A stretch of 64,000 nt of DNA, taken from sequence record PZ495249.1. The stretch is one strand, 5' to 3'. The stretch comes from a phage. Below the pieces are notes generated by a model. It ran no database searches. It was not told where the DNA came from and saw only the letters and a program-made list of their open reading frames with translations. Below are positions 8,490 to 60,005 of this stretch, one piece after another (the stretch's first letter is position 1; each line of letters opens with the position of its first letter). Position numbers and translations under genes: made by a program.

Positions 8490-8507
8490 AAACAGACTTA
8501 TTGCAAG

Positions 8508-9544: not shown

Positions 9545-9554
9545 TACTCACTCC

Positions 9555-9914
9555 TTATTTTTTAAGGGATGTGCGTTGAGATCTTTTCTTAGCTGGAGTA
9601 TCTACGGCTTTAACTTCAATCTTTTCCGCAGGGGCTTGCTCGTCTAATTTGGTATAGTCTTCAAAGCTCACCAGGTAATAACCAACGTGTTCTTCGCTGC
9701 TGAATGGAAGCACTTTAAGACCAGTTTCTTCACGTAGACGCACAAGGAAGTGTACAAAGTTTCCACCAAGTGCTACTCTACCATCAGTTGTGTAGAAGGA
9801 CATTGGCGGCGCAACGCTCAGAGTCTTACCTGCATCGAGAGATGGGGCAAGAGAGGCGAAGTCCATGATCATTTCATGGTATGAAAAATAACGTTTTAGT
9901 TCAGGGCTTGACAT
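9555..9914 (-). CDS. head-associated protein, 119 aa
   Basis: ORF immediately downstream of the major capsid gene and its terminator. Confidence 0.35.
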   Translation of the reverse strand: MSSPELKRYFSYHEMIMDFASLAPSLDAGKTLSVAPPMSFYTTDGRVALGGNFVHFLVRLREETGLKVLPFSSEEHVGYYLVSFEDYTKLDEQAPAEKIEVKAVDTPAKKRSQRTSLKK

Positions 9915-9949
9915 TTGAGTTCTCCTCGTTTATATTCTTCTCATAACAA

Positions 9950-9982
9950 AAAAGCCCACCCGCAAGGGGCAGGCTTTTTAGA
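9950..9982 (-). terminator. intrinsic terminator after major capsid gene (looks bidirectional)
   Basis: GC-rich 8-bp hairpin (GCCCACCC...GGGGCAGGC) flanked by an A-run upstream and T-run downstream on the plus strand. Confidence 0.45.
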
Positions 9983-9993
9983 ATCCGTTAGGA

Positions 9994-10995
9994 TTAAGCA
10001 GTAGTCAGACGAACAACCAGTTCTGGGCGAGTGTTAACTGCCAGAAGAGAGAATTCAGACTGTAGCTGAACTGTACGGTGTTCTGATACCATGAAGGTAT
10101 ACAGTTCACGAGCAACAGTGTTCGCCAGTTCAGGTGTGTCAGCAGGAGCGTAGTGCGCCTGGAACATATCTGGGATACCCATTGGCAGCACGAATGCTTC
10201 ACCAGCAGGGATGTTTCCGTGGATATCTTCGATGTAAGTTACACCGTTCCATTCGAACACTTGAACGTCCATGTTGCCACTCAGACGGTCACGCAGCAGG
10301 TTTGGAGTACCTTGGAAATACTGGTACGCCTGACGCACGAACGGAGAGTTCACCAGAGAGGCGAAGAACTCGCGAGAGCACAGAGCGATGATACGAGTAG
10401 CGGTAGAACCGTCTTGTTTCTCGTCGATGATGTACGCACGAGCTTCCTGTTCTACAGTTGCCGCAGGGGAAACAGTAGTAGAAGTGAAGTCGATTGGTAC
10501 AACTTTCTGTGTTGCGTTCCATTCTGTGTACCAGTTGTACGCAGAGTTAGCTGCACCACCTGGTCCATTGTACGCGAAACCACGTACTGCATCAGCAAAG
10601 ATAGTTTCTTTGGTTTTGGCTACGTCGCGCATGATTTGAGTCATGTAGCGGTTAACAACTTCCGCTTCGGTACGAAGACTATCGTTGATACCAGCCATAG
10701 CGAAGCTACGGAAGGATTGGATATCCTGTGCCTTAATGTTCTTATCCAGAGGGAAGAACGGAATACGGAAGACTTTAACGCTTGGTGCGTCCATAGTCAG
10801 GAAGTTACGTTCACCACCACGTTCACGGGCAGGAATCAGACCATCAGCGTTTTTCTGTTTACCGATTTCGATAGCAGTAGTCGCGTGATAGTGAGTGTCG
10901 AACAGGCCAAGACTTGCGATCAGAGTATCAGGGGTGTCCTGTAACTCGATCATTGGGCTAAAGTCTACAACCTGGTCCAGAATAATAGCTGGCAT
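9994..10995 (-). CDS. major capsid protein, 333 aa
   Basis: Size and position (after decoration/scaffold genes, before a strong terminator) typical of a major capsid gene. Confidence 0.6.
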   Translation of the reverse strand: MPAIILDQVVDFSPMIELQDTPDTLIASLGLFDTHYHATTAIEIGKQKNADGLIPARERGGERNFLTMDAPSVKVFRIPFFPLDKNIKAQDIQSFRSFAMAGINDSLRTEAEVVNRYMTQIMRDVAKTKETIFADAVRGFAYNGPGGAANSAYNWYTEWNATQKVVPIDFTSTTVSPAATVEQEARAYIIDEKQDGSTATRIIALCSREFFASLVNSPFVRQAYQYFQGTPNLLRDRLSGNMDVQVFEWNGVTYIEDIHGNIPAGEAFVLPMGIPDMFQAHYAPADTPELANTVARELYTFMVSEHRTVQLQSEFSLLAVNTRPELVVRLTTA

Positions 10996-33546: not shown

Positions 33547-34275
33547 ATGATCGAAGGATTTTTCAAGGACATTAAAGTAGACAAGCAGTTTTTCATCGAC
33601 GCAGCAAAGCATATCGTTGAGTGGAATGCGAAAGCTCGTGGTGGAGAAACTCCAGAGTTTACCCAAGAGATGTTCATTTCTCAGATCGGATTTGTCCGTG
33701 AAGAACTGAAAGAGTTCCAAGATGCAGCACAACTTAACGATCATGTCGAAATGCTTGACGCAGCGGCTGATGTGTTTGTTGTGGCATCCTATCTGGCATT
33801 TATGTTCTGGGGAGAAGAGCGAGTTAATCTCATGCTGTCTCAGAATGTAGGCGATGTTTTCCCGTCAAACATCTATGATGAGTTCAATCAGATCGATGCA
33901 ACGTTCACTGAGGCTGCTCAGATGGCTATCATGACTCTCGGTATTACCCGTATGGCTCGCGACACTCTGGTGAGATCTGTGTATAACGAGAAGAAAGTGG
34001 TGAAAGAAGTGCTGAAAAGCAATGACTCTAAGTATCCAACACGTAGACAAATTCTTGCAGTGTGGGAAACAAAGGACATTGATTTCGCACTGGAGCAAGA
34101 ATGTGCAGCAATTGAAGATCGTAACAAAGACCGTCCAGAAGGTGCATATACCGGAGTTCATGCTGTCTATAATGAAAAGCAGAAGGTGTATGTATTCTTT
34201 GATGACAAAGGTAAAATTATGAAACCTTCCACCTTCGTTAAACCTGATATTGGGGCTATCGTTGGAAAATCCTAA
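33547..34275 (+). CDS. hypothetical protein, 242 aa (possible MazG-like NTP pyrophosphohydrolase)
   Basis: Acidic helical pattern REELKEFQD...EMLDAAAD resembling the MazG E-x2-E...E-x2-D signature; weak. Confidence 0.3.
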   Translation: MIEGFFKDIKVDKQFFIDAAKHIVEWNAKARGGETPEFTQEMFISQIGFVREELKEFQDAAQLNDHVEMLDAAADVFVVASYLAFMFWGEERVNLMLSQNVGDVFPSNIYDEFNQIDATFTEAAQMAIMTLGITRMARDTLVRSVYNEKKVVKEVLKSNDSKYPTRRQILAVWETKDIDFALEQECAAIEDRNKDRPEGAYTGVHAVYNEKQKVYVFFDDKGKIMKPSTFVKPDIGAIVGKS

Positions 34276-39679: not shown

Positions 39680-39719
39680 CGTAATATAAGCCCCATCAGA
39701 CGGGGCTTTGAGGAGAACC

Positions 39720-40319
39720 ATGAGAATCGTCTGTGACTGTGATTTAGTAATAGCTCCGGCTGATGTTCCCTGGCTTGCCTGGTTGAATGCTGTGAGTGGT
39801 GACAATGTTGTATTGCCAGCAACTGGCAAAGATGCACATTACGACCTATCTGCATACTTCCCAGACTTCGAGAAGAGGTTTGGTATCGACCCGCATTCCT
39901 TCTGGGATAATCAGCATCTGTACGACACAATGGGTACAGTGCCAGGCAGCGTGAATACTCTTAACTATCTTGGTAAGGCTGGAGATACCCTTCTCATCGC
40001 AAGCCACACCAAAGGTGGACATTTTAGCTCCAAGTACCGCTATATAAAACGCAACCTCCCTGAATTTGATTTCGGACGAGGAACAGGTAATGGCTTCTTT
40101 GCGACGAAGGAGAAATACCTACTCCCCTGCGATATAGCAATTGATGATCGGGCAGAGAATCTCGTCTTATTCCCAGATCATGTAGTGAAGGTGTACTTCA
40201 ACACCATATATCAAGATCCATTCTTGGAAGAATTAAAAACCATGCCGAACGTACTGATAACTTCCATCGAAGATCCTTGGAAGGATGTATTCAATGCGGT
40301 TGACATTTATCATAAATAG
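39720..40319 (+). CDS. HAD-superfamily phosphatase (putative 5'-deoxyribonucleotidase), 199 aa
   Basis: N-terminal MRIVCDCDLV (DxD nucleophile motif); SD GAGGAGAACC-ATG. Confidence 0.4.
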   Translation: MRIVCDCDLVIAPADVPWLAWLNAVSGDNVVLPATGKDAHYDLSAYFPDFEKRFGIDPHSFWDNQHLYDTMGTVPGSVNTLNYLGKAGDTLLIASHTKGGHFSSKYRYIKRNLPEFDFGRGTGNGFFATKEKYLLPCDIAIDDRAENLVLFPDHVVKVYFNTIYQDPFLEELKTMPNVLITSIEDPWKDVFNAVDIYHK

Positions 40320-40639: not shown

Positions 40640-41611
40640 ATGATGGTAGATATTAGCGCAAAAGTAATTGCACACTCTCACAACGGATGTGGGAATGAAA
40701 TTGTAACCTTCGAGTTGGAATATCCTCGAATTATTCATAGTGAATTGATGACTCACCGTTTATTCAGTCGCAATGCTGCATCGAGTCGAGCTATTCCGGT
40801 GAAGACACTGATCGAAATGGTTCGTCAAGAGCCAGCAATGCCCTATCGCTTTGGTGCAAATCAACCAGGGATGCAAGATAAGGGTGTAGAACACGATGGG
40901 ATCGTAGGTGCAGGATATACTGGTCGTGAGTGGTGGAATCTTGCTGCGCTTAGTGCTGCTCGCTTTGCAGAAGAACTGGCAGAGGCTGGTTATCATAAAC
41001 AAGTTGTTAACCGTCTTCTGGAGCCGTTCCAACGCATGAAGACCGTTCTGACTGCCACAGAGTATGAAAACTTCTGGTGGCTGCGTGTAGACGCTGACGC
41101 TGATCCAACTATCGAAGCCCTTGCGAAAGCGATGCATAAAGAATATGAAGCATCTGAACCAGAACTCCTACAACCTGGTCAATGGCACACGCCATATGTT
41201 GATCACATCTATGTGCTTGCAGCAGGTAGTGGAGATTTAGATCCTCCTGTATTTGATGGTTATTGTGTCTATGATGAAGACAATCATCCGGTACGTTTAA
41301 CTACCGAAGAGGCGAAATCTATTTCATCCTCGTGTTGTGCTCAGGTGAGTTATCGCCGTCTTAACTCGACTAAAGATAAAGCCCTTGATATTTATGGACG
41401 TTTACTTACAGGGCGTAAGGTACATGCTTCTCCATTCGAACATCAGGCAACACCAATGCAAGAAACGGATGGATATAAGAATATGGAACCGTATAAGTGT
41501 AATTGGGAAGAAGGTGTCACACACATGGATCGAGATGGTGATCTGTGGTCAGGCAACTTCAAAGGCTTCATTCAACATCGTCAGCTTTTGGACAATCACA
41601 CCAAGTGGTGA
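40640..41611 (+). CDS. thyX: ThyX-like flavin-dependent thymidylate synthase, 323 aa
   Basis: ThyX-type signature THRLFSRNAASSRAIP (RHR-x7-S-like) and HASPFEH; longer than typical ThyX. Confidence 0.5.
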   Translation: MMVDISAKVIAHSHNGCGNEIVTFELEYPRIIHSELMTHRLFSRNAASSRAIPVKTLIEMVRQEPAMPYRFGANQPGMQDKGVEHDGIVGAGYTGREWWNLAALSAARFAEELAEAGYHKQVVNRLLEPFQRMKTVLTATEYENFWWLRVDADADPTIEALAKAMHKEYEASEPELLQPGQWHTPYVDHIYVLAAGSGDLDPPVFDGYCVYDEDNHPVRLTTEEAKSISSSCCAQVSYRRLNSTKDKALDIYGRLLTGRKVHASPFEHQATPMQETDGYKNMEPYKCNWEEGVTHMDRDGDLWSGNFKGFIQHRQLLDNHTKW

Positions 41612-42396: not shown

Positions 42397-44646
42397 GTGA
42401 TTCGATATGTAACTAAATCCAACGGCAAGAAAGAAGAGTTTAATCCAGAGAAACTTCGTAAATGGTCGGAGTTTGCTGCGGGTAAACTTAACTGGTCGGA
42501 AATTGAGTTAGAAGCTGTTAAACGTTGTTACGATGGTGTGTCCACTCGTGATCTGCATAAAGCAATGATCTCTGCGTGTATTGACAAGAAAACCCAAGCG
42601 TACAGCGATATGGCTGGTCGATTACTTCTCGGTATGATTTACAAACAGGCGCATGGGGGATACCACAGTATCCCTTCCCTGAATGAGTTCTATAAAGATA
42701 TGGTGAGCCGAGGCCACTGGATCAAGATGGACTATACCGACGAAGAAATCAAAGAGATCGGCAAGATCGTTAAACACGATAAGAACCTTGGGTACGGTTA
42801 TTCTGTACTTCGTCAAATGTCAGATAAATACCTGGTGAAAGATGCCGTGAACGATATTGTTCACGAATCTCCTCAGTTCCTGTTTATTGGTGTTGCGATG
42901 AAGGTAATGGAGATTCAGCCGAAGGAACGACGCATTGAAGATATTAAGCGACTGTATACCTATGTCAGTGATCTTAAAATCAACCTGCCGTCACCTTATC
43001 TGACGACACTGCGTACTCCGATCCCTGGTAGTGCTTCCTGCTGTCTGTTCCGCGCAGACGACACAGCAGAATCACTGGCAATTGCAAACTACTTGGCACA
43101 CGAGTATACTCTGAATAACGCTGGTATTGGTGTTAACCTCCAGACTCGTGCAACGGGGCAGGGCGTTAAGAACAACCGTATTATCCACGGTGGACTACTT
43201 CCTTACCTGAAATGGATGGAAGATAGCGTAGGTGCATCGAAACAGGCAAGTCGTGGTGGTAGTGCTACCGTCACATACACAATCTTGGAACCAGACTTCG
43301 AAGACTTGATCCGAATCAAGAACCCGACAACTCCGGTTGACAAGCGTGTAGATAAATTAGATTATTCAGTCGTGGTTAACCGTTCCTTCTTACGCCGAGC
43401 AGCAAAAGGTGAAGAATGGATGCTGGTAAGCTGTGATGATGCTCCAGAACTCTACGAAGCACTCTACAAAAGTGAAGAAGAGTTTGATGAGGTTTATGAT
43501 CGTGTTAGTCGTAAGCGTATCAAGAAAAAATTCGTTAAGGCGCGTGACCTGCTGACCGAGATTATTGTTCAACGTGCAGAGACAGGACGTATTTATATGT
43601 TCTTCGCTGATAACGTAAACAATCACACACCGTTTACTGATACTGTATATCAGTCAAATCTGTGTCAGGAAATCTTCCTGCCGACGAAAGCATTCCATAA
43701 GATGACGGATCTTTTCACTGGGGAAAATACCGAGGATCAGGAATTAGCTCTGTGCTTCCTATCTTCTATCGTGGCTGGTCGAGTTAAACCAGAAGAATAC
43801 GAAGATGTAGCCTACTACACCGTATTGACAATCGACAACGTTATTGAGACAATGGTTTACCCATTCAAACACAATGAGATCACAGCGAAAGCTCGTCGCT
43901 CCATCGGTGTTGGGATTACAAACCTCGCTCATTACCTCGCAAGTAACTTCGCGACATACTCTGATCCTTATGGTAAGAAACTGATTCACGAGTTAGCTGA
44001 ACGCCACTATTTCTGGTTGGCAAGTGCATCTCTTCGCCTGGCGAAAGAGAAAGGTAATGCTGAGTGGATTGACAAAACCAAATGGCCTCAAGGTTGGCTA
44101 CCAATTGATACCTATTCAAAAGCGGTAGATGATATTGGCAACTTCGAGTTGAAAAACGATTGGGAAGGATTACGCCAAGAGATTATCGCTCAGGGTGGTA
44201 TCCGCAACAGCGTATTAACCGCTATTGCACCAAATGAATCAAGTAGCCTGGTGAGTAACACTACCAACTCTGTATATCCAGTACGTGACACAATCATGTA
44301 CAAGCAGAGCCAGAAAGGTAACGTGTTGTTTATTGTGCCGGATTACGAAAAGCTGAAAACCGTTTATCAGAGCGCATGGGATACCCCTGCGAAAGATATT
44401 GCTGAAATGTACGGATTGTTAACCAAATTCATGGATCAGGGTATTTCCTGTGACGAATGGGCTGACTATTCTAAAATGGAGGGTGGTCGTCTGTCTATTA
44501 AAGCTCAGATGCAATTCATCTTCACGTTTGCCAAATTAGGCGGTAAGTCTCTGTACTACTTGAATAGTAGAACCAAATCAGCCGAATCTCTCGCCCAAGA
44601 GGATTCCGGTTTTGGTGAAGATGGTTGCGAAGCGTGTAAGATGTAA
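42397..44646 (+). CDS. nrdA: ribonucleotide reductase large subunit (class Ia NrdA-like), 749 aa
   Basis: N-terminal ATP-cone (RYVTKSNGKKEEFNPEKL); typical length; C-terminal Cys pair (CEACKM); nrdB follows. Confidence 0.8.
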   Translation: MIRYVTKSNGKKEEFNPEKLRKWSEFAAGKLNWSEIELEAVKRCYDGVSTRDLHKAMISACIDKKTQAYSDMAGRLLLGMIYKQAHGGYHSIPSLNEFYKDMVSRGHWIKMDYTDEEIKEIGKIVKHDKNLGYGYSVLRQMSDKYLVKDAVNDIVHESPQFLFIGVAMKVMEIQPKERRIEDIKRLYTYVSDLKINLPSPYLTTLRTPIPGSASCCLFRADDTAESLAIANYLAHEYTLNNAGIGVNLQTRATGQGVKNNRIIHGGLLPYLKWMEDSVGASKQASRGGSATVTYTILEPDFEDLIRIKNPTTPVDKRVDKLDYSVVVNRSFLRRAAKGEEWMLVSCDDAPELYEALYKSEEEFDEVYDRVSRKRIKKKFVKARDLLTEIIVQRAETGRIYMFFADNVNNHTPFTDTVYQSNLCQEIFLPTKAFHKMTDLFTGENTEDQELALCFLSSIVAGRVKPEEYEDVAYYTVLTIDNVIETMVYPFKHNEITAKARRSIGVGITNLAHYLASNFATYSDPYGKKLIHELAERHYFWLASASLRLAKEKGNAEWIDKTKWPQGWLPIDTYSKAVDDIGNFELKNDWEGLRQEIIAQGGIRNSVLTAIAPNESSSLVSNTTNSVYPVRDTIMYKQSQKGNVLFIVPDYEKLKTVYQSAWDTPAKDIAEMYGLLTKFMDQGISCDEWADYSKMEGGRLSIKAQMQFIFTFAKLGGKSLYYLNSRTKSAESLAQEDSGFGEDGCEACKM

Positions 44647-44649
44647 TAT

Positions 44650-44676
44650 CAAGGGGCGAAAGCCCCTTTATTTTTC
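44650..44676 (+). terminator. intrinsic terminator after nrdA
   Basis: AGGGGC-GAAA-GCCCCT hairpin followed by TTATTTTTC. Confidence 0.45.
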
Positions 44677-44687
44677 TAAGGAGGATT

Positions 44688-45026
44688 ATGAATTCTATAA
44701 TCGTATTGTCTGGAGTAACAAAGCTATTACCACTCAAGAATTATGTCCTGGTTGATCCAAAAGATTTCACATTAGATTGGTGTTGTCAGTTTATCGGGGG
44801 AATGAATTTTACGAATGCGGAGATCTGGGAGTCTTCTGACTCTAAGGCAACTGCATATACACTCTCCAGAGTAAGAACTTATGGTTCAGAATTTAGTGTG
44901 CTACTGACACAAAGCGTGTGGAATGGTCTGGAAGAATACTATCGAGAACATGGTGTGGAAGAGAGTGAGATAGAAGTGTTAAAATCATGGTGTGATATTG
45001 TGGAGGATTTAAATGGCAGCAATTAA
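44688..45026 (+). CDS. hypothetical protein, 112 aa, between nrdA and nrdB
   Basis: SD TAAGGAGGATT-ATG. Confidence 0.4.
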   Translation: MNSIIVLSGVTKLLPLKNYVLVDPKDFTLDWCCQFIGGMNFTNAEIWESSDSKATAYTLSRVRTYGSEFSVLLTQSVWNGLEEYYREHGVEESEIEVLKSWCDIVEDLNGSN

Positions 45027-46098
45027 TTTACATAACGAAACTTACAAAGAGGGTAAATACCCTGTCTTCTTAGGTGAACAACTGGGGATCTTTGATTCTA
45101 TTAACGTCACCTATCCTGAAATGCATCGTCTTTATAAGCTCCAGAAAGCCCAAGATTGGGATGAAAACGAGGTGAATCTGGATCAGACACGTAAAGACTT
45201 CGTAGCATGTTCTGCAAATAACTACGATGTGATGATCAAAAACCTTTCGTTCCAGTGGGAGAATGATTCCCTGGCGAAATCTATTATCACGTTGTTCGCT
45301 CCTTTCCTGAGTAACAATGAAGCCTGTGCAATGATGATGAAGCAGTCTGAAATTGAAGTGCTTCACGCTCTAACTTACTCTGAAATTATCCGTCAGTGTA
45401 TTCCAAATCCGAACGAAGTGATCGAACAGATTATGGAAAATGACCGTATCTTCCAGCGAATGGGTATTGTGGAAGAAGTCATGTCCGAACTGTACGAAGC
45501 TGGTCACAAGTATGCACTTGGTGAACTGGAAGCAAATGACGATCTGCGTCTACTGATCCTGAAAGGTATGATCGCTCTGATTGGTCTGGAAGGTATTCAG
45601 TTTATCTCTTCCTTCTCTGCAACATTCGCCCTGGCAGAACAGCAACTGTTCGTCGGTGCATGTAAGCTGATTCAGAAAATTATGTTGGATGAGATCTTGC
45701 ATGTTAAGATGGATTATGCTATTATTGACGCACTGATGAAGGAACCAGAGTGGAAGAAAGTTTACGATGAGAACATTGATGAACTGACTGCTATTCTGGA
45801 TACCATTATCGCCCAAGAAGAAGATTGGTGCGACTACCTGTTCAGTGAAGGTCGTGTAATTGTCGGTCTGAATGCTGAACTGTCCAAACAGTGGGTTTAC
45901 TTCAACGCCGCCCCTATCTATCGTCGTCTGAAAATGAAACACAAATTCCGTTCTCCGAAACAAACGCCTCTGGCGTGGATGGATGTGTGGCTCAACCCAG
46001 ACCAGATTCAAGCGGCTGCTCAGGAAATCCAACGTACTGACTACAAACTCAACTCTGCCAATAAAGATGTGGCAGACGATGAAGAATTTGAGTGGTAA
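45013..46098 (+). CDS. nrdB: ribonucleotide reductase small subunit (NrdB-like), 361 aa
   Basis: Ferritin-like helical protein of the right size directly after nrdA; acidic C-terminal tail (DDEEFEW). Confidence 0.75.
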   Translation: MAAINLHNETYKEGKYPVFLGEQLGIFDSINVTYPEMHRLYKLQKAQDWDENEVNLDQTRKDFVACSANNYDVMIKNLSFQWENDSLAKSIITLFAPFLSNNEACAMMMKQSEIEVLHALTYSEIIRQCIPNPNEVIEQIMENDRIFQRMGIVEEVMSELYEAGHKYALGELEANDDLRLLILKGMIALIGLEGIQFISSFSATFALAEQQLFVGACKLIQKIMLDEILHVKMDYAIIDALMKEPEWKKVYDENIDELTAILDTIIAQEEDWCDYLFSEGRVIVGLNAELSKQWVYFNAAPIYRRLKMKHKFRSPKQTPLAWMDVWLNPDQIQAAAQEIQRTDYKLNSANKDVADDEEFEW

Positions 46099-46107
46099 GG
46101 AGCAATA

Positions 46108-46245
46108 ATGTTAGATGGTGATGTGTGCCAGGTTTGTGGTGGCACTGGTCAAGTTTATGTCGGCGGGGGCTTTAGCCCTTGCTGGACTTGTAACGGCTTC
46201 GGAGTAATTCCGAAACAAGAGGAGGAAGAAAAGGATGGGGATTGA
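46108..46245 (+). CDS. small zinc-ribbon ORF, 45 aa
   Basis: SD TAAGGAGCAATA-ATG; CQVCGG...CWTCNG. Confidence 0.3.
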   Translation: MLDGDVCQVCGGTGQVYVGGGFSPCWTCNGFGVIPKQEEEEKDGD

Positions 46246-46561
46246 TATTGGCTGGAGAATGGTACAGGGTGCTACACTGGATGTGTGGGAAGAGGCTTTC
46301 GGAGAAGATGAAACATTTCTGGAAGATTATGACGGAGACATGGCAGGTTTCTTGGAAGATCACTTGAATGTTGTAAGGGTATCGCCGTGGTTTGATGCAG
46401 ATAGCTCAGATTGTATCTTCGGTGTTAAACTTGCAGGTGGTGATTACTCCAAGGATATAGATCTTGCTGAACTTGCTGTTAAGGCAAAAGAAATAGCACA
46501 CGATCTCAAGAGTAAGTATGGTATTGATACCACTACCATTTGTAGTCAGAACGTCTACTAA
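46235..46561 (+). CDS. hypothetical acidic protein, 108 aa
   Basis: ATG with SD GAGGAGGAAGAAAAGG. Confidence 0.4.
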   Translation: MGIDIGWRMVQGATLDVWEEAFGEDETFLEDYDGDMAGFLEDHLNVVRVSPWFDADSSDCIFGVKLAGGDYSKDIDLAELAVKAKEIAHDLKSKYGIDTTTICSQNVY

Positions 46562-46570
46562 GGAGAAAGA

Positions 46571-47566
46571 ATGCGATACCTGGTGACAGGTGGGCTTGGA
46601 TTTATTGGGAGCGCGGTAGTGCGCTCTCTGCATAAAAACCCACTTAACGAAATCTATGTTGTTGACAAATGGGGCTATGCCTCCGATCCACGTAATCTTA
46701 CACTCACCCCAGATGTAAGATTCTGTAAGTTAGACTTGACAGACCTCGTGTTAACTGTTAAGATGCTGGCTGACATTAATCCAGATTACATTATCCACTT
46801 GGCGGCTGAAAGCCATGTTGACAATTCAATCTCTGCTCCAAAAGCATTCATTGAGTCAAATGTAATCGGTACGTTCAATCTGCTTGAAGCAGTGCGGTAC
46901 ATGGGTAACAGATCAAAGCTCAAGAAGTTCCTACATGTCTCCACAGACGAAGTGTACGGCGATTTGAGCGTAGAAGATGTTCCGTTTACCGAAGACACAC
47001 CTTATGCCCCAAGTAGCCCGTACAGCGCGTCTAAGGCAGCGAGTGACCATCTGGTACAAGCTTGGCATCGTACCTACGGAATTCCAACCGTAATTACCAA
47101 TTGCTCGAACAACTTTGGTGCATATCAGCATCCAGAAAAGTTGATTCCCCGTGTAATTACGAGTATCATGATCGGTAAACAGATTCCTGTCTATGGGAAC
47201 GGTTTACAAGTAAGGGATTGGTTGTTTGTCGATGACCATGTAGATGCCTTGCTTCTGGCACTCACCGAAGGTAAGGTGGGAGAAACATATAATATCGGTA
47301 GTCGCAACCCTCGTACCAATATGGAAGTAATTTATATGATCTGTGATTATATGGATGCTGTCCATGCAGACAAGGGTTTCTATCCTGCATCAAATCTTAT
47401 TAAATTCGTTAGTGATCGCCCTGGTCATGACACTCGTTATGAGATTGATCCTACGAAGTTGGAGACAGAGTTAGGATGGGCTACTGAGGGTACATTCGAA
47501 GAGAAACTTTATCAAACCATTGAGTGGTATATTGCTCACGACTTATGGTGGCAGAATAAAGTTTAA
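46571..47566 (+). CDS. rmlB: dTDP-glucose 4,6-dehydratase
   Basis: N-terminal Rossmann GGLGFIGS; short-chain dehydrogenase catalytic YxxxK (YSASKAA); 331 aa. Confidence 0.8.
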
Positions 47567-47574
47567 GGAGGAGC

Positions 47575-48501
47575 ATGAAAGGTATTATCCTTGCGGGTGG
47601 CAGTGGCACTCGTTTGTATCCGGTGACTAAAGGGGTAAGCAAGCAATTGCTCCCCATTTACGATAAACCGATGATCTACTATCCACTATCTGTATTAATG
47701 CTGGCAGGGATAAACGATATCTTAATTATCACAACACCCGAAGATCAGCGTAATTTCCAACAGCTTCTTGATGACGGAGAAGACTTAGGAATCAGCATCA
47801 CCTATGCAACTCAGGATCAACCAAGAGGGTTGGCAGAAGCCTTTATTATCGGTGAAGATTTCATTGGTGATGATTCTGTAGCCCTTGTCCTCGGAGATAA
47901 TTTATTCTTTGGACAAAGTTTCGGTACTCTCTTACATTGTGCAAAAGAGCATGTGGAATTCTATGGCGGAGCCGGAGTATTTGGTTATCGAGTGAACGAT
48001 CCTGAACGATTCGGTGTTGTAGAGTTCGATGACTCAGGTAAGGTTGTGAGTATTGAAGAGAAACCTGTTAATCCTCGCAGCAATTATGCAGTTACTGGAC
48101 TTTATTTCTACGACAATTCTGTGATTCAGAAAGCCAAAGAAGTGCAACCTTCTGCTCGTGGTGAATTGGAGATTACAGACATTAACGAAATGTACCTTAA
48201 AGAACGTGCGCTCCAAGTGTGGAAACTGGGAAGAGGTTTCACTTGGCTTGACACAGGTACACATGCAAGTTTAATGGAGGCATCTCAGTTTGTGCATACA
48301 ATTGAGAAACAGCAAGGAATGAAACTCGCTTGCCTTGAAGAAATTGCATTTATGAATGGGTGGATTACAGCAGAGCAACTTATTCTGACAGGAACTGCCC
48401 TGGCTAAAACAGAATATGGACAATATCTGCTTTCATTAGGAGGGGTTAGATGGAAAGCACAATTAACGTCAGAGAAACCAGCATTGAAGGTCTTGTCGTA
48501 A
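47575..48501 (+). CDS. rmlA: glucose-1-phosphate thymidylyltransferase
   Basis: Signature N-terminus [39 protein letters not shown]. Confidence 0.85.
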
Positions 48502-49019
48502 TAACACCGAGGGTGTTCGGTGATGACCGAGGATTTTTCCTTGAGTCTTTCAACCAAGCCCGATATGATAACCTTATTGGTGAACACACGTTTGTTCAAG
48601 ATAACCACTCCCGTTCTACGAAAGGAGTCCTCCGTGGACTCCACTACCAAGAAACAAATCCCCAGGGGAAATTAGTGAGATGCACAAGCGGCATGGTATT
48701 TGATGTGGCTGTGGACTTACGTGAAGGTAGTCCGACCTTCGGAGAATGGGAAGGTGTTGTACTTAGTGAACAAAACAAAACGCAATTCTGGATTCCACCA
48801 GGATTCGCTCATGGCTTTGTCGTTATCTCAGACGTAGCCGATTTCGAATACAAATGCACTGAATATTACGATCCAACCTCGGAACGCAGTTTACTCTGGA
48901 ATGATCCTGATGTAGCTGTCGATTGGGGATTTGACTTAATCTTTGGTGATGAAAATTATCAGCCTATTCTATCTCAGAAAGATCGAGAGGCCAAAACCCT
49001 ACGGGAGATTTTTGGATGA
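48450..49019 (+). CDS. rmlC: dTDP-4-dehydrorhamnose 3,5-epimerase
   Basis: Cupin epimerase motifs ([17 protein letters not shown]); SD TAGGAGGGGTTAG-ATG; overlaps rmlA 3' end. Confidence 0.75.
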
Positions 49020-49852
49020 AACGATATTTAGTATTGGGTGGTAATGGTCAATTAGGCCAAGCACTCAATAAAGTGAAGCCGGAAGATGTAGATTTAATTT
49101 ATCCTGAACGTTGTGATATTACCGATTTCAAACAGGTGAAGGATCTAATCGTACAAACTATGCCGGAAGCAGTTATCAACTGCGCAGCATATACAGCCGT
49201 CGATAAAGCCGAAGAGGATATGCAGACTGCAATTAGTGTTAATGCATACGGTGCTGCAAATATTGCGAAAATCTGTGGTGAACTTTACATTGACTTAATT
49301 CACATTTCGACGGATTATGTCTTTGATGGTTCATTCCCTGGTATTGAGGGTGCTGAAACAAATCCGTTAAATGTCTACGGTTACTCCAAGCGTTTCGGTG
49401 AAGAATTAGTTCACGCGGTTCATCCTGGGGCATTAATTATCCGTACAGCTTCTGTGTATAGCGAATTCGGTAACAACTTCCTGAAAACTATGTTAAGCCG
49501 CTACAACGGCGGTCAACGTGAGTTTGATGTTGTCTGCGATCATTACTCCTGTCCAACATATGCTCCAGATCTTGCTGAAATGATTTTCACAATGTTGGAA
49601 TATGGTGTTGGTGGTCGTATTCTTCATTACGCAGGTAAAGAATATTTAAGCTGGTATGACTTTGCGACACGTATCTTCTGGGAAATAGATATGACGGTTA
49701 AAGTAAACCCAGTATCTGCTGCTCAGTATAACTCCAAGGCAGTACGACCTGCCAAATCCTATCTTGAAACCAAAGGGTTCCTGACTCCAAAACCAGTAGC
49801 CCACGGTATTAACGAATCACTGAAAGTTCTATTAAATAAGGAGAGAGAATGA
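49016..49852 (+). CDS. rmlD: dTDP-4-dehydrorhamnose reductase
   Basis: N-terminal Rossmann LVLGGNGQLG; 278 aa; position after rmlC. Confidence 0.75.
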   Translation: MKRYLVLGGNGQLGQALNKVKPEDVDLIYPERCDITDFKQVKDLIVQTMPEAVINCAAYTAVDKAEEDMQTAISVNAYGAANIAKICGELYIDLIHISTDYVFDGSFPGIEGAETNPLNVYGYSKRFGEELVHAVHPGALIIRTASVYSEFGNNFLKTMLSRYNGGQREFDVVCDHYSCPTYAPDLAEMIFTMLEYGVGGRILHYAGKEYLSWYDFATRIFWEIDMTVKVNPVSAAQYNSKAVRPAKSYLETKGFLTPKPVAHGINESLKVLLNKERE

Positions 49853-50115
49853 ATTTTGTAATCTATGGTAAACCTGACTGTCAATTCTGCACTATGGCTA
49901 AGCAGCTATTAGAGATGCGAGGTCAGGAGTTTAATTACCTCACCCTGGATGTAGATTACACTCTTGATCACATGCAAGCAGTGGTCGTAGAGAAAACAGG
50001 AATTCCACCACGTACATTCCCACAAATTTTAGTGCAGGAATCGGACGTTGCGGAGTACAAGCACGTAGGAGGTTTCACCGAACTACGTGATTTCATGGCT
50101 CAGATTGCGGAGTAA
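49849..50115 (+). CDS. glutaredoxin/NrdH-like thiol-disulfide redox protein, 88 aa
   Basis: N-terminal YGKPDCQFC (CxxC) thioredoxin-fold pattern. Confidence 0.6.
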   Translation: MNFVIYGKPDCQFCTMAKQLLEMRGQEFNYLTLDVDYTLDHMQAVVVEKTGIPPRTFPQILVQESDVAEYKHVGGFTELRDFMAQIAE

Positions 50116-50273: not shown

Positions 50274-50774
50274 ATGGCTAAAGTAGTAGATGAGTTTGAT
50301 ATGCTACGCCTTGACGAGGGACTAAAGCTCACCGTCTATACAGATACCGAAGGGTATTGGACAGTGGGTATTGGTCATCTCTTAACGAAAGTCAAAGATA
50401 AAGCGGTTGCTATCGCTGAACTGGATAAGCTGGTAGGTCGTAAGACCAATGGTGTTATCACAGAAGACGAAGCACGTACAATCTTCAAGAAAGACGTTGA
50501 AAAGGCTATCAAGCAGGTTAAACAGAGTAAGATTCTATCTCCGATTTACGATAAGGTGAGTCCTACTCGTAAAATGGCAATTGTCAATATGGTATTCCAA
50601 ATGGGGATTGCCGGAGCAGAATCTTTCCAAAATAGCTTGACATTAGTGAGCAATTCGTACTATACTCAGGCTGGTATCAATTTACGTAAAAGTAAGTGGT
50701 ACAAACAAACGCCTAATCGTGCAGAGCGAGTTATCAAGGTTCTTACATCTGGAACACTTGATGCTTATAACTAA
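50274..50774 (+). CDS. T4-type lysozyme (GH24 endolysin), 166 aa
   Basis: Near-colinear with T4 lysozyme: EMLRLDEGLKLTVYTDTEGYWTVGIGHLLTK (catalytic Glu/Asp/Thr context), SKWYKQTPNRAERVI; SD AAGGAAAAC-ATG. Confidence 0.85.
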   Translation: MAKVVDEFDMLRLDEGLKLTVYTDTEGYWTVGIGHLLTKVKDKAVAIAELDKLVGRKTNGVITEDEARTIFKKDVEKAIKQVKQSKILSPIYDKVSPTRKMAIVNMVFQMGIAGAESFQNSLTLVSNSYYTQAGINLRKSKWYKQTPNRAERVIKVLTSGTLDAYN

Positions 50775-50811: not shown

Positions 50812-51564
50812 ATGGGAAATAAACCAGCAAAGTCTCCACGTCAGAAGCTGGCTGCTAATGACCAGAGACAAAGCCGTTATGCGGCGAAAGCTGTGGGGAA
50901 CGATGACTACCGTCTTGACGAATTCTATCCAACCGAGGCTCAGGAAGAGATTGTGCATAGCATGGTCTGGAATGACCTTACGATTGTGAATGGACGTGCA
51001 GGTACTGGTAAGACAACAACCGCTCTGTGGAAAGCGTTACAAATGCTGAAAGCAGGTGATGTACGAAAACTGCTCTTCCTGAAAAACCCAACTGAGGTGG
51101 GTGACGATCAGATTGGTTTCTTATCTGGTGACAAGTCAGAAAAACTGACTGCGCACTACGAGTCTACCAAACGAATTTTCCAGCAATTCATGACCGCAAA
51201 CAAACTGGAAACAGATATTGCTAACGGTAAAATCGAACTAAACATTCCTAACTACGCACTGGGCGCTACCTGGGATAACACAATCATCCTGATTGACGAA
51301 TCTCAGTTAATGTCTCCCGATACCATCAAGCTCCTTCTGGAACGTACTGGTATCAACTCTCGTGTTGTCGTTATCGGTGACGTGAAACAAACTTATGCTA
51401 TCAAACATCGTAAAAACGGACTCGCAGATCTTGTAGATCGTGTAGCTCCGGCTGATGAAGACGGCTATCACACACCTGTAACCGACTTTATCGGATACGT
51501 TGAACTGTCAAGCGATGAGAACCAGCGTTCACGTCTGTCTCAGTTCATCACGGAAATTTATTAA
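50812..51564 (+). CDS. phoH: PhoH-like ATPase, 250 aa
   Basis: Walker A GRAGTGKTT; Walker B IILIDESQ; typical PhoH size. Confidence 0.7.
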   Translation: MGNKPAKSPRQKLAANDQRQSRYAAKAVGNDDYRLDEFYPTEAQEEIVHSMVWNDLTIVNGRAGTGKTTTALWKALQMLKAGDVRKLLFLKNPTEVGDDQIGFLSGDKSEKLTAHYESTKRIFQQFMTANKLETDIANGKIELNIPNYALGATWDNTIILIDESQLMSPDTIKLLLERTGINSRVVVIGDVKQTYAIKHRKNGLADLVDRVAPADEDGYHTPVTDFIGYVELSSDENQRSRLSQFITEIY

Positions 51565-51601: not shown

Positions 51602-52093
51602 ATGGCATTTGTTGAAATAGGTAGAAGCGGTATTGACGAGTGTTACCAAGCGGGTTTAGTAAAGCCGAACGAGTTCCGGCAGATTTATGTAAACAAGATT
51701 GAACAAGAGATCGCTCTCTTACTTGAAAACCTAACACTTAAACAAAAGTGGGGAATGTTCAAATCTTGGTTAAAGAATGAGGATTGGATTTTATCCCATT
51801 ACCAGGAACTTTCTGATAGTAAAGACGGACTGTTTGAGTGTATAATAGAGATAGCCGCCTCAAATCCACAACTTCTTCATATTGATGAAGAAGATTCCAA
51901 ACTACTTTTCCTAAGCAGTATTTTCCACAAGAAATCCTTACTCGTTCGAGAGTGCAGTGATTTATTTAATCACCCGCTCACCCGTACCGAGAAGATTCTG
52001 GTGGACAAAGAAACGTTACGCGCAATTGACTATCTACGAAAATACGTGAACGGTGGAAAAGCAGTTCTTAAAACATTGCAGGAGGAAGAATAA
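51602..52093 (+). CDS. hypothetical protein, 163 aa
   Basis: ORF with SD (ATGGAGGATAA). Confidence 0.4.
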   Translation: MAFVEIGRSGIDECYQAGLVKPNEFRQIYVNKIEQEIALLLENLTLKQKWGMFKSWLKNEDWILSHYQELSDSKDGLFECIIEIAASNPQLLHIDEEDSKLLFLSSIFHKKSLLVRECSDLFNHPLTRTEKILVDKETLRAIDYLRKYVNGGKAVLKTLQEEE

Positions 52094-52782
52094 TGACAAC
52101 GATTATTGCAACAAAGACTAAGATTCTAAGCGACGGTAAAACTACCGTAGGCAATCGTGTAGACGATTACGACTTTAAGAAAGTACGTAAGATTGGGGAT
52201 TATCTGGTCGGTGGCGCTGGTCGTCTAACCTCCATCCTCACATTCTTCGCCTGGTTTGAGCAGAATCTGCAATGTCAAGCGGCACAAGAATCTATCCCAG
52301 GGTTGATGATTCAATCAGATCCTGACAAGGACGACGAAGACTTCATTGCGTTAGTTGTCCATCCTGACGGTAAAATTTTCATCCACGAAGGTGCTGATCC
52401 TCGTCGAGCATTCCCAATCGAGCGTGAATACTACGCTGTTGGTAGTGGTGCAGACTTCGCATTAGCGGCGCTTGATGCCGGAGCCACTCCAGAACAAGCA
52501 ATGGAAGTTGCAAAACTCCGTGATGCTTTCTCGGGTGGTGAAACTTTCGTAGAAGAACGCGAAGAAATTGTTGACATTACTGATGAAGATCTGAGAAACT
52601 TCTCAAGAGAGCAGCTTCTGAATCTGCTTCTTACTGGTTCTCCAGAAGGTGATGCAGCACAACAGTTGCTGGCTACGCCGGAAGAAGAACATCCTAAAGG
52701 TGATACTGGTGAAATGGGAGTTTCTTGTGGTATTCCTGGTGTTGCAGGTGCTACTTTTACAACTCCTTCACTGGGCGCTTAA
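52093..52782 (+). CDS. HslV-like N-terminal-nucleophile peptidase with acidic C-terminal extension, 229 aa
   Basis: MTTIIATKTKIL...GNRV...KKVRKIGDYLVGGAGRLTSILTFF and AVGSGADFALAA parallel HslV (Thr at position 2). Confidence 0.55.
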   Translation: MTTIIATKTKILSDGKTTVGNRVDDYDFKKVRKIGDYLVGGAGRLTSILTFFAWFEQNLQCQAAQESIPGLMIQSDPDKDDEDFIALVVHPDGKIFIHEGADPRRAFPIEREYYAVGSGADFALAALDAGATPEQAMEVAKLRDAFSGGETFVEEREEIVDITDEDLRNFSREQLLNLLLTGSPEGDAAQQLLATPEEEHPKGDTGEMGVSCGIPGVAGATFTTPSLGA

Positions 52783-54005: not shown

Positions 54006-54668
54006 ATGAAATTCGTACTTTACCATCGTCTTTCCAAAAAGAAACAGCAAGGCAACCAATACGGTATTGAATCACAGGAAGTTGATATTCAACGTTTCCT
54101 GGACTCGCAAGAGAACTATACCGTGATCGGGACTTTCGCTGAATACTACTCTGGTAAAGGTGACTGGAAGCAACGTAGAGAACTGGTGAAAGCCGTGGAA
54201 CTCTGCAAAGCAACTGGTGCAACACTTGTGGTTGCAAAGGTTGACCGTTTAGGTCGTAACACTGCCTCAGTTGCAACGCTTCTCGAAATGGTGAATGTTC
54301 GTATTGCTACGATGCCCTCCGCTGAGAATATGGTGATTAATATCCTCGCCGTTCTCGCAGAAGAAGAAGCACGAGCGATCTCTGATCGTGTGAGAAAAAG
54401 TTTGAAAGTTGCCAAAGAGAAAGGTATACTCCTTGGTGCTGCAAATGAAAAATACAATCGTACAGATTACTCTAAGAGAGAGGAATCAAAGCGCTCTATG
54501 GAATTTGCCATGAGCATGAAAGATTCCCTTGTTGCTTTCCGTTCAATGAACACACCGTTCATGACAATTGCAAAGCATCTTAACGAAAGCGGTAAAACTA
54601 CTATCCGAGGCAGCAAGTTTGATGCGAAAGCTGTCCAGCGCTTATGTTCTAAGTTAGAAATCAACTGA
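54006..54668 (+). CDS. serine recombinase (resolvase/invertase family), 220 aa
   Basis: Catalytic-domain motifs YHRLSKKKQ (Ser nucleophile), LVVAKVDRLGRN, and the E-rich helix EEEARAISDRVRKSL. Confidence 0.5.
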   Translation: MKFVLYHRLSKKKQQGNQYGIESQEVDIQRFLDSQENYTVIGTFAEYYSGKGDWKQRRELVKAVELCKATGATLVVAKVDRLGRNTASVATLLEMVNVRIATMPSAENMVINILAVLAEEEARAISDRVRKSLKVAKEKGILLGAANEKYNRTDYSKREESKRSMEFAMSMKDSLVAFRSMNTPFMTIAKHLNESGKTTIRGSKFDAKAVQRLCSKLEIN

Positions 54669-58095: not shown

Positions 58096-58378
58096 TGTGG
58101 GATTAGAACACTCCTTCCTTGCCTCTTGGCAAGGATGGGATGAAGTGGGAAGTGCAGGTGATCTTTGCTTCTATGGTTGCACTTTAGCGAACCACCTGAA
58201 AGGGATGGAGCCAGAGGGAACCAAGGAGATTATTACAATCTTCCTGATGAGTGAGTCAACTGTGCAATTTGACTTCTACGGTGAGAGCGCGTTTTCTGAC
58301 CCTCGTGATGCTTACTTGGGAAGCAAAGCATTTAAAATTAAAGCAGTATTAGAAGAGGAGATTCCTTGCGATGAGTAA
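58085..58378 (+). CDS. hypothetical protein, 97 aa
   Basis: Track ORF; start uncertain; no tail motif. Confidence 0.3.
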   Translation: MTANVGLEHSFLASWQGWDEVGSAGDLCFYGCTLANHLKGMEPEGTKEIITIFLMSESTVQFDFYGESAFSDPRDAYLGSKAFKIKAVLEEEIPCDE

Positions 58379-58790
58379 ATATGTAACTGGTCAAATTTTT
58401 GAAGACAACTGGGATGACGAAGTGGGGCGTATTGTATACGCTAACGGCATCTGGTCTAACGATGAAGACCGCGCTGCCTTTGAAGATTCGTATGGCGGAA
58501 TGCCGGACGATATGCCAGAGGTGATCCTGTACGAATTCATGTACCATGATGAATTTGTCGAGGGCGAAGCAGCGATCAAAGATTTTGTTCGTGAGCATGG
58601 CCTTATCGACGTTGCAGAGCGTGAGTGTAAAGATCGAGAACGCCAAGTGATTGTTGATACCCTGAATGCAATGGGCGTAGATACCGCCGATCTGATTGTT
58701 TCAGAAGGTCGTGTTTACATGGGGAGCGACGAGTGTGAAGCCTATATTCAAGGCAGTCATGCTTGGTGTTCAAGTAGCATGATTTGCTAA
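58371..58790 (+). CDS. acidic protein, 139 aa, WxSSSxxC family
   Basis: Ends ...GSHAWCSSSMIC-stop. Confidence 0.45.
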   Translation: MSKYVTGQIFEDNWDDEVGRIVYANGIWSNDEDRAAFEDSYGGMPDDMPEVILYEFMYHDEFVEGEAAIKDFVREHGLIDVAERECKDRERQVIVDTLNAMGVDTADLIVSEGRVYMGSDECEAYIQGSHAWCSSSMIC

Positions 58791-58799
58791 GGAGAGTGG

Positions 58800-59234
58800 A
58801 TGTATAATAACACTGATAATCTCGAAGTCGGAAAAGACTTCTACGATCTGAATACTGGTGAGTATGTCTTTACCGTTATTTATGATGGTGACGACGACAC
58901 CCGCATCCTGGTAGAAGGTATCCCAACAAAGGTGCAGAGTCAGTATAGTGATTACATGTATGATATCGTGGCATACAATAAGGACACTATGCACCCTTTA
59001 GACGAAGATGATGTGAACGATATTTGTTACAACAATTTGATTGTCACAAAGGAATATCTGGACGCCATCAATGCCACGAAACAAGTATTGATTAATATCT
59101 GGGAACAATCTGGTATTCAAGAACCATTCGTGTATGAAGATGGGAATTTCTATGTTGGTAAAGAACAAGTTCTTTCAGCCCACATTAATTCCGGCTACGA
59201 ACACGGTTGGATTTCGAGTAGTATCTGCTGGTGA
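58800..59234 (+). CDS. acidic protein, 144 aa, WxSSSxxC family
   Basis: Ends ...YEHGWISSSICW-stop; SD AAGGAGAGTGG-ATG. Confidence 0.45.
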   Translation: MYNNTDNLEVGKDFYDLNTGEYVFTVIYDGDDDTRILVEGIPTKVQSQYSDYMYDIVAYNKDTMHPLDEDDVNDICYNNLIVTKEYLDAINATKQVLINIWEQSGIQEPFVYEDGNFYVGKEQVLSAHINSGYEHGWISSSICW

Positions 59235-59458: not shown

Positions 59459-59649
59459 GTGAATTTAAAACAGTAAGTGAAGCAGTGGCAGCGGCAAATG
59501 CTGCCCTCGCTGAGGCAGAACGCCTATCTCTGGAAACAGGTGAAGGGTTTGGTTTCCATCCGTGTTATGGTATGGGCGGTTACTTCGATCCAGAAGAAGA
59601 AAACGAGTACACTGGGGATCACTGGTTCCCATCTTCACTGGGTTGCTAA
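59455..59649 (+). CDS. small protein, 64 aa, WxSSSxxC family
   Basis: Start at ATG with SD GGGAGAGAGA; ends ...GDHWFPSSLGC-stop. Confidence 0.45.
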   Translation: MSEFKTVSEAVAAANAALAEAERLSLETGEGFGFHPCYGMGGYFDPEEENEYTGDHWFPSSLGC

Positions 59650-60005
59650 TGCAGCCATTTGAGTGTAAAGTGTTTATTGCAGGGCATGAAGTTATGCCCT
59701 TTGATGAAAACGTGAGTATTGAGATAAGGAGAACACCTGTGGACAAGAAAGAAATTGAAAACCTGATCCGTGAAAAAACTGCTGCTGCCGAAGCCTACAT
59801 GCAGTCTGTGAAAGACGAAGTGGCTGAACTGGCAGATAAAGCTGGCGTTCAGGCTTATTGGGGCGAATATGGTAGCGGTGAAACCTACTACCCTGTTGGT
59901 ACAGATGTAAATGCCGAATACATCGGTTGGGAAGCGAGTGAGTATGCAGATGAGAACGGTATCCTGACTCAAGGTATGTGGATCTCTTCAAGCTCTATGT
60001 GCTAA
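59649..60005 (+). CDS. acidic protein, 118 aa, WxSSSxxC family
   Basis: ATG overlaps the upstream stop (TAATG); ends ...TQGMWISSSSMC-stop. Confidence 0.45.
   Translation: MQPFECKVFIAGHEVMPFDENVSIEIRRTPVDKKEIENLIREKTAAAEAYMQSVKDEVAELADKAGVQAYWGEYGSGETYYPVGTDVNAEYIGWEASEYADENGILTQGMWISSSSMC

Follow-up and report, generated by a model that had tools for sequence, protein, structure and literature searches.

A dTDP-L-rhamnose gene cassette in a Stephanstirmvirinae phage as a putative sugar-donor supply for phage-encoded glycosyltransferases

The 64,000-nt stretch of phage DNA considered here (record PZ495249.1, one strand, 5′ to 3′; "the window" hereafter means this whole stretch) carries five closely packed open reading frames (ORFs) on the + strand, at 46571-47566 (331 aa), 47575-48501 (308 aa), 48450-49019 (189 aa), 49016-49852 (278 aa) and 49849-50115 (88 aa). 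The first four constitute an rml cassette, predicted to make deoxythymidine diphosphate (dTDP)-L-rhamnose, and the fifth encodes a glutaredoxin (grx). The cassette genes, with their scores against NCBIfam equivalog models, are as follows.

46571..47566, + strand: rmlB, dTDP-glucose 4,6-dehydratase (step 2); TIGR01181, 427.6 bits (cut-off 365.1)
47575..48501, + strand: rmlA, glucose-1-phosphate thymidylyltransferase (step 1); TIGR01207, 469.1 bits (cut-off 360.65)
48450..49019, + strand: rmlC, dTDP-4-dehydrorhamnose 3,5-epimerase (step 3); TIGR01221, 252.2 bits (cut-off 155.75)
49016..49852, + strand: rmlD, dTDP-4-dehydrorhamnose reductase (step 4); TIGR01214, 250.4 bits (cut-off 224.05)

Enzyme identity was assessed with Pfam, with the equivalog models at their curated cut-offs and by alignment to PDB structures. 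RmlB matches the Pfam families GDP_Man_Dehyd/Epimerase (1e-81) and has as its best PDB match 1bxk, the RffG protein of E. coli (8.7e-111), with the GxxGxxG, STDEVYG and YSASK motifs aligned. RmlA (NTP_transferase, 3.5e-75) retains GGSGTRL, LGDN, EEKP and WLDTGT, that is, the nucleotide loop and the metal and sugar-phosphate residues, when aligned to 4ho0 (5.4e-127). For RmlC (dTDP_sugar_isom, 2.8e-72) alignment to 2ixi, the P. aeruginosa enzyme (3.2e-63), brings RGLHYQ, GKLVR, the Tyr in EYKCTE and the KD of SQKD into register, and for RmlD (RmlD_sub_bind, 5.9e-75) alignment to 3sc6 (2.5e-49) does the same for GNGQLG, STDYVF and YGYSK. All four proteins align end to end with solved structures and have intact catalytic motifs. 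A preliminary description of this DNA had proposed that four contiguous genes cover every step of dTDP-L-rhamnose synthesis, and the ORF list, the Pfam and equivalog matches and the structural alignments all confirm it. The family assignments thus predict an intact and enzymatically active pathway.

The genes are tightly packed. The rmlB start lies 9 nt after the preceding stop codon, which itself falls within a TAAGGAG Shine-Dalgarno sequence, and an 8-nt spacer separates rmlB from rmlA (TAA-GGAGGAGC-ATG). The reading frames of rmlA and rmlC, which differ, overlap by 52 nt (48450-48501; the overlap is 10 nt in Citrobacter phage Tr1). The overlapping part is a C-terminal extension that makes RmlA about 19 aa longer than the portion aligning to solved RmlA structures. 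The rmlC/rmlD and rmlD/grx overlaps are of 4 nt each (ATGA). Such spacing is compatible with the translational coupling asserted in the preliminary description.

Substitutions were counted between the window and metagenome contigs that are ~99% identical to it. In rmlD 25 differences are synonymous and 2 non-synonymous (ratio of non-synonymous to synonymous polymorphism, pN/pS, ~0.02); rmlC shows 2 synonymous and 0 non-synonymous differences, and grx 16 and 1, respectively. The RmlB protein is identical on 9 metagenome contigs. The rml genes are under strong purifying selection, which supports a function for the pathway. That these might be inactive pseudo-copies, an outcome the preliminary description had allowed for, is countered by the cut-offs passed, the intact motifs and the purifying selection. 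Apparent truncations of rmlC (108 aa) and grx (73 aa) in Joint Genome Institute (JGI) gene calls proved to be gene-calling artefacts, since the underlying DNA runs collinear with the window and keeps its reading frame.

The composition and phylogenetic affinities of the cassette bear on its origin. The rml genes have a GC content of 0.41-0.44, equal to that of the window as a whole (0.435). In a search of 5.8 billion proteins, RmlD homologues on phage-sized contigs of ~150 kb formed one unbroken phage clade in which identity falls from 99% to ~50%, and bacterial RmlD sequences (Bacteroidota, marine Gammaproteobacteria) were at most 47% identical to that of the window. For this reason rmlD is best seen as an old phage gene and not as a recent host capture. 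Its nearest structures are of Bacillota type. The cut-offs of the enterobacterial-specific models are missed by wide margins: PRK10217 gave 391.7 bits against 698, PRK15480 gave 426.5 against 588 and PRK09987 gave 127 against 308. Bacterial rfb/rml operons, such as rfbBDAC of E. coli and Salmonella and the rffG/rffH genes of enterobacterial common antigen (ECA), have the same four enzyme families, chemistry and equivalog models, RmlB being nearest to RffG. They differ from the phage cassette, which has the order B-A-C-D, sits in a nucleotide-metabolism block and not in a polysaccharide locus, and is not host-derived, with RmlD nearest to Bacillota/Bacteroidota types. The cassette would thus have been inherited vertically, with no sign of recent capture from an enteric host.

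Sequence comparison assigns the window to a myophage of the subfamily Stephanstirmvirinae, that of phi92 and phAPEC8. In the structural, tRNA and replication modules it resembles Klebsiella phages KP13-26, FKP3, KP2025 and phi1_175008, with 78-83% nucleotide identity across 50-67% of the query; Justusliebigvirus is more distant from it than these are. The four Klebsiella phages make up the proposed genus 'Sichuanvirus' (PMC11726925); by the same comparison they are the nearest sequenced relatives of the window, which is of a different species. Near-identical sequence came up in metagenome assemblies alone, among them JGI contig Ga0496123_0000130 (153,725 bp). An exact 44-mer taken at the end of the window had no match among viral contigs, four of the window's proteins had no identical record, and a metagenome scan with the FKP3 primase/helicase gave a single locus, 41% identical. 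Two further metagenome contigs, L011 and L013, were considered as the rest of this genome, since they share identical proteins with the window, but were rejected as mosaic relatives (a neighbouring protein is 79% identical).

The cassette is already known as a hallmark of the phi92/phAPEC8 subfamily, to which the window adds one member. A tblastn search gave 170 phage records for RmlC and 144 for RmlB. The majority (~130) are Stephanstirmvirinae, phi92 and phAPEC8 included, in which the genes are annotated as rml genes. Across these ~130 genomes, from several genera, the cassette occupies one locus at 60-90% amino acid identity; RmlB of the window is 72% identical to its phi92 orthologue, and RmlC is 91% identical to that of Klebsiella phage phi1_175008 and 76% to that of phi92. 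The complete pathway was remarked on by Olsen et al. in 2020, who called its location in the DNA-metabolism region 'peculiar' and speculated about glycosylation of hydroxymethylated nucleotides (PMC7552041). Maffei et al. (2021) wrote of a 'putative dTDP glycosylation machinery' in phages that are yet 'exceptionally susceptible' to restriction-modification (RM) systems (PMC8594841), a point restated later (PMC10844046). Our literature searches found no published demonstration of the function of a phage rml gene.

Phages phi92 (Justusliebigvirus; gene_065 is rmlC and gene_067 rmlB), phAPEC8 (Phapecoctavirus) and Citrobacter phage Tr1 all have the order rmlB-rmlA-rmlC-rmlD, directly after nrdA/nrdB and followed by grx, a small ORF, the endolysin gene and phoH; they are of other species or lineages, the nearest isolates matching at ~81-83% nucleotide identity over about half of the region. 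The Klebsiella 'Sichuanvirus' phages have the same flanks, and their rmlC, rmlD and grx are 81% identical at the nucleotide level, but rmlB and rmlA are cleanly absent. Homology begins ~13 nt before the rmlC ATG, and positions 7998-10007 of FKP3 (record L001) correspond to the region of window 46561-48450 without these two genes. Because B-A-C-D is common to Justusliebigvirus, Phapecoctavirus, Tr1 and the present lineage, loss of rmlBA in the Klebsiella group is the parsimonious explanation.

All Enterobacterales make dTDP-4-keto-6-deoxy-glucose for ECA, via RffH/RffG. With the intermediate supplied by the host, RmlC and RmlD are therefore the minimal set for dTDP-L-rhamnose in such hosts, and the relatives that keep only rmlCD may point to L-rhamnose as the product that matters. 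A different reduction is seen in Escherichia phage cardinal (PQ567651.1; L024, 3501-4409), where the rml locus has collapsed to one in-frame chimera of 302 aa: RmlB residues 1-~125 are fused to RmlD residues ~97-278 at a common HISTD motif, with neither rmlA nor rmlC left. Since cardinal is a viable isolate without the pathway, the rml pathway is accessory and not essential for lytic growth.

A search for a rhamnosyltransferase beyond the window, suggested in the preliminary description, leads in the relatives to four conserved soluble glycosyltransferases (GTs), which the subfamily keeps outside the region equivalent to the window. In E. coli phage BME3 their genes stand side by side just ahead of the one for the primase/helicase and encode GTa (187 aa, phrog_14179), GTb (228 aa, GT-A, phrog_2456) and a paralogous pair, GTc and GTd (324 and 314 aa, GT-B-like, phrog_7162). 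In the phage database the numbers of GT records agree with those of RmlC: counts among Escherichia phages are 106 for RmlC, 106 for GTa, 107 for GTc/d and 113 for GTb; among Klebsiella phages they are 8, 9, 10 and 9 in the same order, the 'Sichuanvirus' phages differing in a smaller GT-B set with a single or truncated GTc/d. The metagenomic lineage nearest the window has the order GTa-GTc-GTd-89 aa-primase/helicase-PolA, and its GTb-type enzyme (210 aa) is relocated to a site downstream of a SIR2 gene, several kb further on than the point where the window stops. This SIR2-family gene lies at or past the end of the window (~63.5-64.0 kb; 12402-13217 on contig L011 and 16145-16960 on L013) and is followed, on the opposite strand, by a block of small genes and by the GT-A gene. 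A GTa orthologue (P0209) is found on a JGI contig of 153,725 bp, and the contig with an RmlB identical to that of the window is also 153,725 bp long. To judge from these relatives, the GTs are probably present in this exact genome as well.

The structural model of GTb is a confident one (predicted local distance difference test, pLDDT, 95.7) and has a GT-A fold; the DDD motif is invariant. Its fold neighbours are generic GT-A/GT2 enzymes, among them chondroitin polymerase, GlfT2, ppGalNAc-T (protein O-GalNAc transferases), WrtF, the Listeria rhamnosyltransferase RmlT, the dTDP-binding SpsA and two viral proteins, STIV A197 and PBCV-1 A64R. Among phages outside the subfamily, relatives of GTb were found only in 559 mycobacteriophage records and a few other actinobacteriophages. 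Compared with proteins annotated as glycosyltransferases in mycobacteriophages of clusters F and C, Rita included, GTb is 23-31% identical (E from 1e-10 down to 2e-12).

On balance, we consider it somewhat more probable than not that the rml cassette serves to provide donor sugar to glycosyltransferases that the phage itself encodes and whose acceptor is something other than DNA. RmlA would condense glucose-1-phosphate with dTTP, RmlB would dehydrate the product to dTDP-4-keto-6-deoxy-D-glucose, RmlC would epimerise it at C3 and C5, and RmlD would reduce C4 to yield dTDP-L-rhamnose. The phage could then make the donor sugar in any host, including those without rmlC/rmlD in their O-antigen or capsule locus. 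The most likely consumers would be GTa, GTc and GTd, encoded upstream of the primase/helicase gene, and GTb, encoded a few kb past the window end; jointly, these four enzymes might assemble a glycan that contains rhamnose, on an acceptor other than DNA. We infer the coupling of the rml pathway to the phage glycosyltransferases from genomic comparison. Four soluble GTs with a donor pathway look like a system that puts together an oligosaccharide on an acceptor in the cytoplasm, by analogy nearer to the mycobacteriophage and giant-virus cases than to DNA glycosylation.

Virion proteins are our leading candidate for that acceptor, although we put this forward tentatively. The full proposition, that the cassette and the four GTs glycosylate virion proteins with a rhamnose glycan, the C-terminus of the tail sheath being one candidate site, is a shade more doubtful still. 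Among mycobacteriophages, the capsid proteins of Che8 and Rita carry glycans, according to a paper that cites Freeman et al. 2023 (PMC11256854). The likeness to the mycobacteriophages consists in the homology of the subfamily's GTb to annotated glycosyltransferases of theirs and in the several soluble glycosyltransferases that both groups encode. Work by Freeman from 2023 reportedly identifies a Ser/Thr-rich C-terminal extension as the glycan attachment site in mycobacteriophages. In the window, the tail sheath gene (5980-7386, - strand) ends in a Ser/Thr/Asn-rich 16-mer, NRTANVQNSNSTTVSS (C-terminus at 5980-6030), which is kept in the subfamily as NRTANSQNSNSSTVSS in phi92 and as NRTSSSTTSNSSTTSS, richer still, in FKP3; the equivalent in rV5, DKVGS-KSTNAVAMTE, is less Ser/Thr-rich. 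This C-terminus is a possible O-glycosylation site, to be taken as a lead and not as evidence. Giant viruses (Mimivirus, chlorovirus) offer a further parallel, in that they combine UDP-L-rhamnose synthesis with viral glycosyltransferases such as PBCV-1 A64R. They differ in being viruses of eukaryotes and in using the UDP and not the dTDP route, and their fold likeness to GTb is of the generic GT-A kind.

The preliminary description had named the Ser-rich tails of a protein family at 57.9-60.0 kb as a speculative glycosylation target. This suggestion did not survive: the tails, at 58.4-60.0 kb, are no more than a short conserved Cys-terminated motif (W-x-S-S-S-x-C), and nothing links them to glycosylation. 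The small paralogues in question (58371-58790, 58800-59234 and 59562-60005, + strand) end in W-[ICV]-[ST]-S-S-x(0-2)-C, with endings such as WCSSSMIC, WISSSICW and WISSSSMC, and FKP3 has five such paralogues (L001, 18235-19882).

Several points weigh against a donor-supply role with the virion as acceptor. As reported in the preliminary description, the window has no recognisable glycosyltransferase of its own, and tblastn with the glycosyltransferases of relatives found none in its 64 kb. What ties the rml genes to the GTs is their co-inheritance inside a single clade, which is phylogenetically non-independent. The fold neighbours of the GTb model settle neither donor nor acceptor. RmlD clears its cut-off modestly and is moderately identical to characterised RmlD proteins; as far as sequence can tell, its product might be the C4 epimer 6-deoxy-L-talose instead of L-rhamnose. 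The major capsid and tail tube proteins of the window have ordinary C-termini, with no Ser/Thr-rich extension, and our literature searches found no published glycosylated Stephanstirmvirinae virions. The window differs from the mycobacteriophage systems both in its gene content and in its capsid and tail tube C-termini.

Among the alternatives, the one that survives best is manipulation of the host envelope, which we rate as unlikely. The phage glycosyltransferases would add the sugar to a lipid-linked glycan, be it the lipopolysaccharide (LPS) core, the O-antigen or ECA, or else RmlC and RmlD would divert dTDP-4-keto-6-deoxy-glucose from ECA; receptors on the infected cell would be altered as a result, bringing superinfection exclusion or fewer progeny lost on debris. 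The phages of this group do recognise surface glycans, and ECA has been proposed as a receptor of Vequintavirinae and their relatives (PMC8594841). The rmlCD-only Klebsiella relatives have just what a diversion mechanism needs, but rmlA and rmlB, where present, would enlarge the pool of the intermediate and not starve it. A match to YjbF/GfcB-like (group 4 capsule) lipoproteins near the downstream GT of FKP3 (E=2.3e-5, just under the cut-off) would fit an envelope role. However, no membrane or flippase partner of the GtrA/GtrB type was seen beside the phage glycosyltransferases in the relatives' loci, a short lytic cycle gives little time for surface remodelling, and there is no experimental hint of an envelope function.

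Hypermodification of DNA, in which dTDP-rhamnose would be the donor to a hydroxymethylated base in analogy to the glucosyl-hydroxymethylcytosine of T4, is the explanation put forward by Olsen et al. 2020 (PMC7552041), and we regard it as very improbable. The position of the cassette in a nucleotide-metabolism module, between nrdB and grx, speaks for it, and T4 likewise has a glycosylation function among genes of nucleotide metabolism. A weak match of BME3 GTb to the TET-associated glycosyltransferase family PF20691 may point the same way, at E=6.8e-5 and 23.3 bits, below the cut-off of 27.5 (E=0.009 for FKP3). T4, however, uses host UDP-glucose and GT-B enzymes. Moreover, the phi92-like phages, on which the result was obtained as relatives of the present phage, are exceptionally sensitive to RM systems (PMC8594841). 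Ten ORFs at 32-42 kb, scanned with Pfam, comprise DNA ligase, MazG-like, RdgC, RNase H-like, NT5C-like genes and one for a divergent ThyX-type protein and hold no ThyA-type hydroxymethylase or TET/JBP dioxygenase. Given this restriction sensitivity and the absence of hydroxymethylase and TET genes among the scanned ORFs, bulk rhamnosylation of DNA is unlikely; four GTs also exceed the number used by known DNA glycosylation systems.

We give almost no credence to the idea that the rml genes are decaying or neutral cargo, remnants of an old capture of a bacterial rfb locus with no role in infection, which the viability of phage cardinal with its RmlB::RmlD chimera and without rmlA and rmlC, and the Klebsiella relatives without rmlB and rmlA, would accommodate, but which must contend with strong purifying selection, intact catalytic motifs, retention of the locus in ~130 genomes across genera and a composition fully matched to the phage.

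The genes that flank the cassette, and the glutaredoxin gene that closes it, are listed below.

42397..44646, + strand: nrdA, class Ia ribonucleotide reductase large subunit; the orthologue on metagenome contig L006 has Ribonuc_red_lgN/lgC, and the gene is named nrdA in relatives
45013..46098, + strand: nrdB, ribonucleotide reductase small subunit; the orthologue has Ribonuc_red_sm, and the gene is annotated so in relatives
46235..46561, + strand: conserved protein of 108 aa, phrog_15453 (PHROGs E=6.9e-33; no Pfam match), directly upstream of rmlB
49849..50115, + strand: glutaredoxin (grx) with a CQFC active site; Pfam Glutaredoxin 2.5e-10, phrog_22 thioredoxin domain 1.3e-19
50274..50774, + strand: endolysin (phage lysozyme), the next conserved gene in the syntenic block; Pfam Phage_lysozyme 3.2e-12
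50812..51564, + strand: phoH-like ATPase, at the end of the nrd...phoH block and in the same position in FKP3, Tr1 and UPEC06; Pfam PhoH 3e-37

The preliminary description was thus right to place the cassette after nrdAB. Comparison of the window with FKP3, Tr1 and metagenome contigs gave the same order throughout, nrdA-x-nrdB-(small ORFs)-rml genes-grx-small ORF-endolysin-phoH, and in FKP3 the same 108-aa ORF (phrog_15453) precedes rmlC. The endolysin start is likely an internal ATG, giving a protein of 166 aa that matches the orthologues on contigs L006, L007 and L013. A terminator-like hairpin follows nrdA at 44651-44668, and no intrinsic-terminator-like site was found on the + strand from nrdB to the end of the endolysin gene.

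In phage UPEC06 of the Vequintavirinae, a sister subfamily, the order is nrdA-x-x-nrdB-hyp-glutaredoxin-hyp-endolysin-phoH (hyp, hypothetical protein), with zero rml genes. Because UPEC06 keeps the ancestral nrdAB-grx block, which nrdA opens, without rml, grx is a conserved ribonucleotide reductase partner outside the sugar pathway, and rmlBACD is therefore an insertion between nrdB and grx. The glutaredoxin is probably the reductant of NrdAB, and its adjacency to rmlD would be historical and not functional. The CxxC glutaredoxin that the preliminary description had placed behind the four rml genes is there, but it is no part of the sugar pathway.

Further upstream on the + strand lie nucleotide-pool genes for a ThyX-type protein (40640-41611), an NT5C-like deoxynucleotidase (39708-40319) and a MazG/PRA-PH-like pyrophosphatase (33547-34275). 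The ThyX-type protein is divergent and matches Thy1 at 36.6 bits with partial coverage of the model. At ~27-28.5 kb of the window gene orientation flips from - (structural and tRNA genes) to + (replication and nucleotide metabolism), and the GC skew changes sign there, from about -0.1 to +0.15-0.2. Downstream of phoH, a 229-aa protein (52093-52782, + strand) has an acidic low-complexity C-terminal region and an FKP3 orthologue annotated as an HslV-family peptidase. A serine recombinase of 220 aa (54006-54668, + strand) stands among the early genes of this virulent phage; its orthologues have the Pfam domain Resolvase, and that of FKP3 is annotated as a DNA invertase.

The puzzle posed by this locus is that purifying selection maintains four GTs and a dTDP-rhamnose supply of their own in ~130 virulent coliphages and related phages. 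Natural variants are at hand for comparison, namely the rmlCD-only Klebsiella phages and cardinal with its RmlB::RmlD chimera. If the acceptor is the host envelope, a lytic phage would be manipulating receptors in a new way. If instead a glycan is placed on the virion, these would be, to our knowledge, the first phages infecting Gram-negative bacteria with glycosylated virions, provided, like giant viruses, with their own nucleotide-sugar supply. Phage glycosylation would then extend past the actinobacteriophages, and, subfamily phages having been characterised as candidates for therapy and biocontrol, it would bear on antibody recognition and pharmacokinetics.

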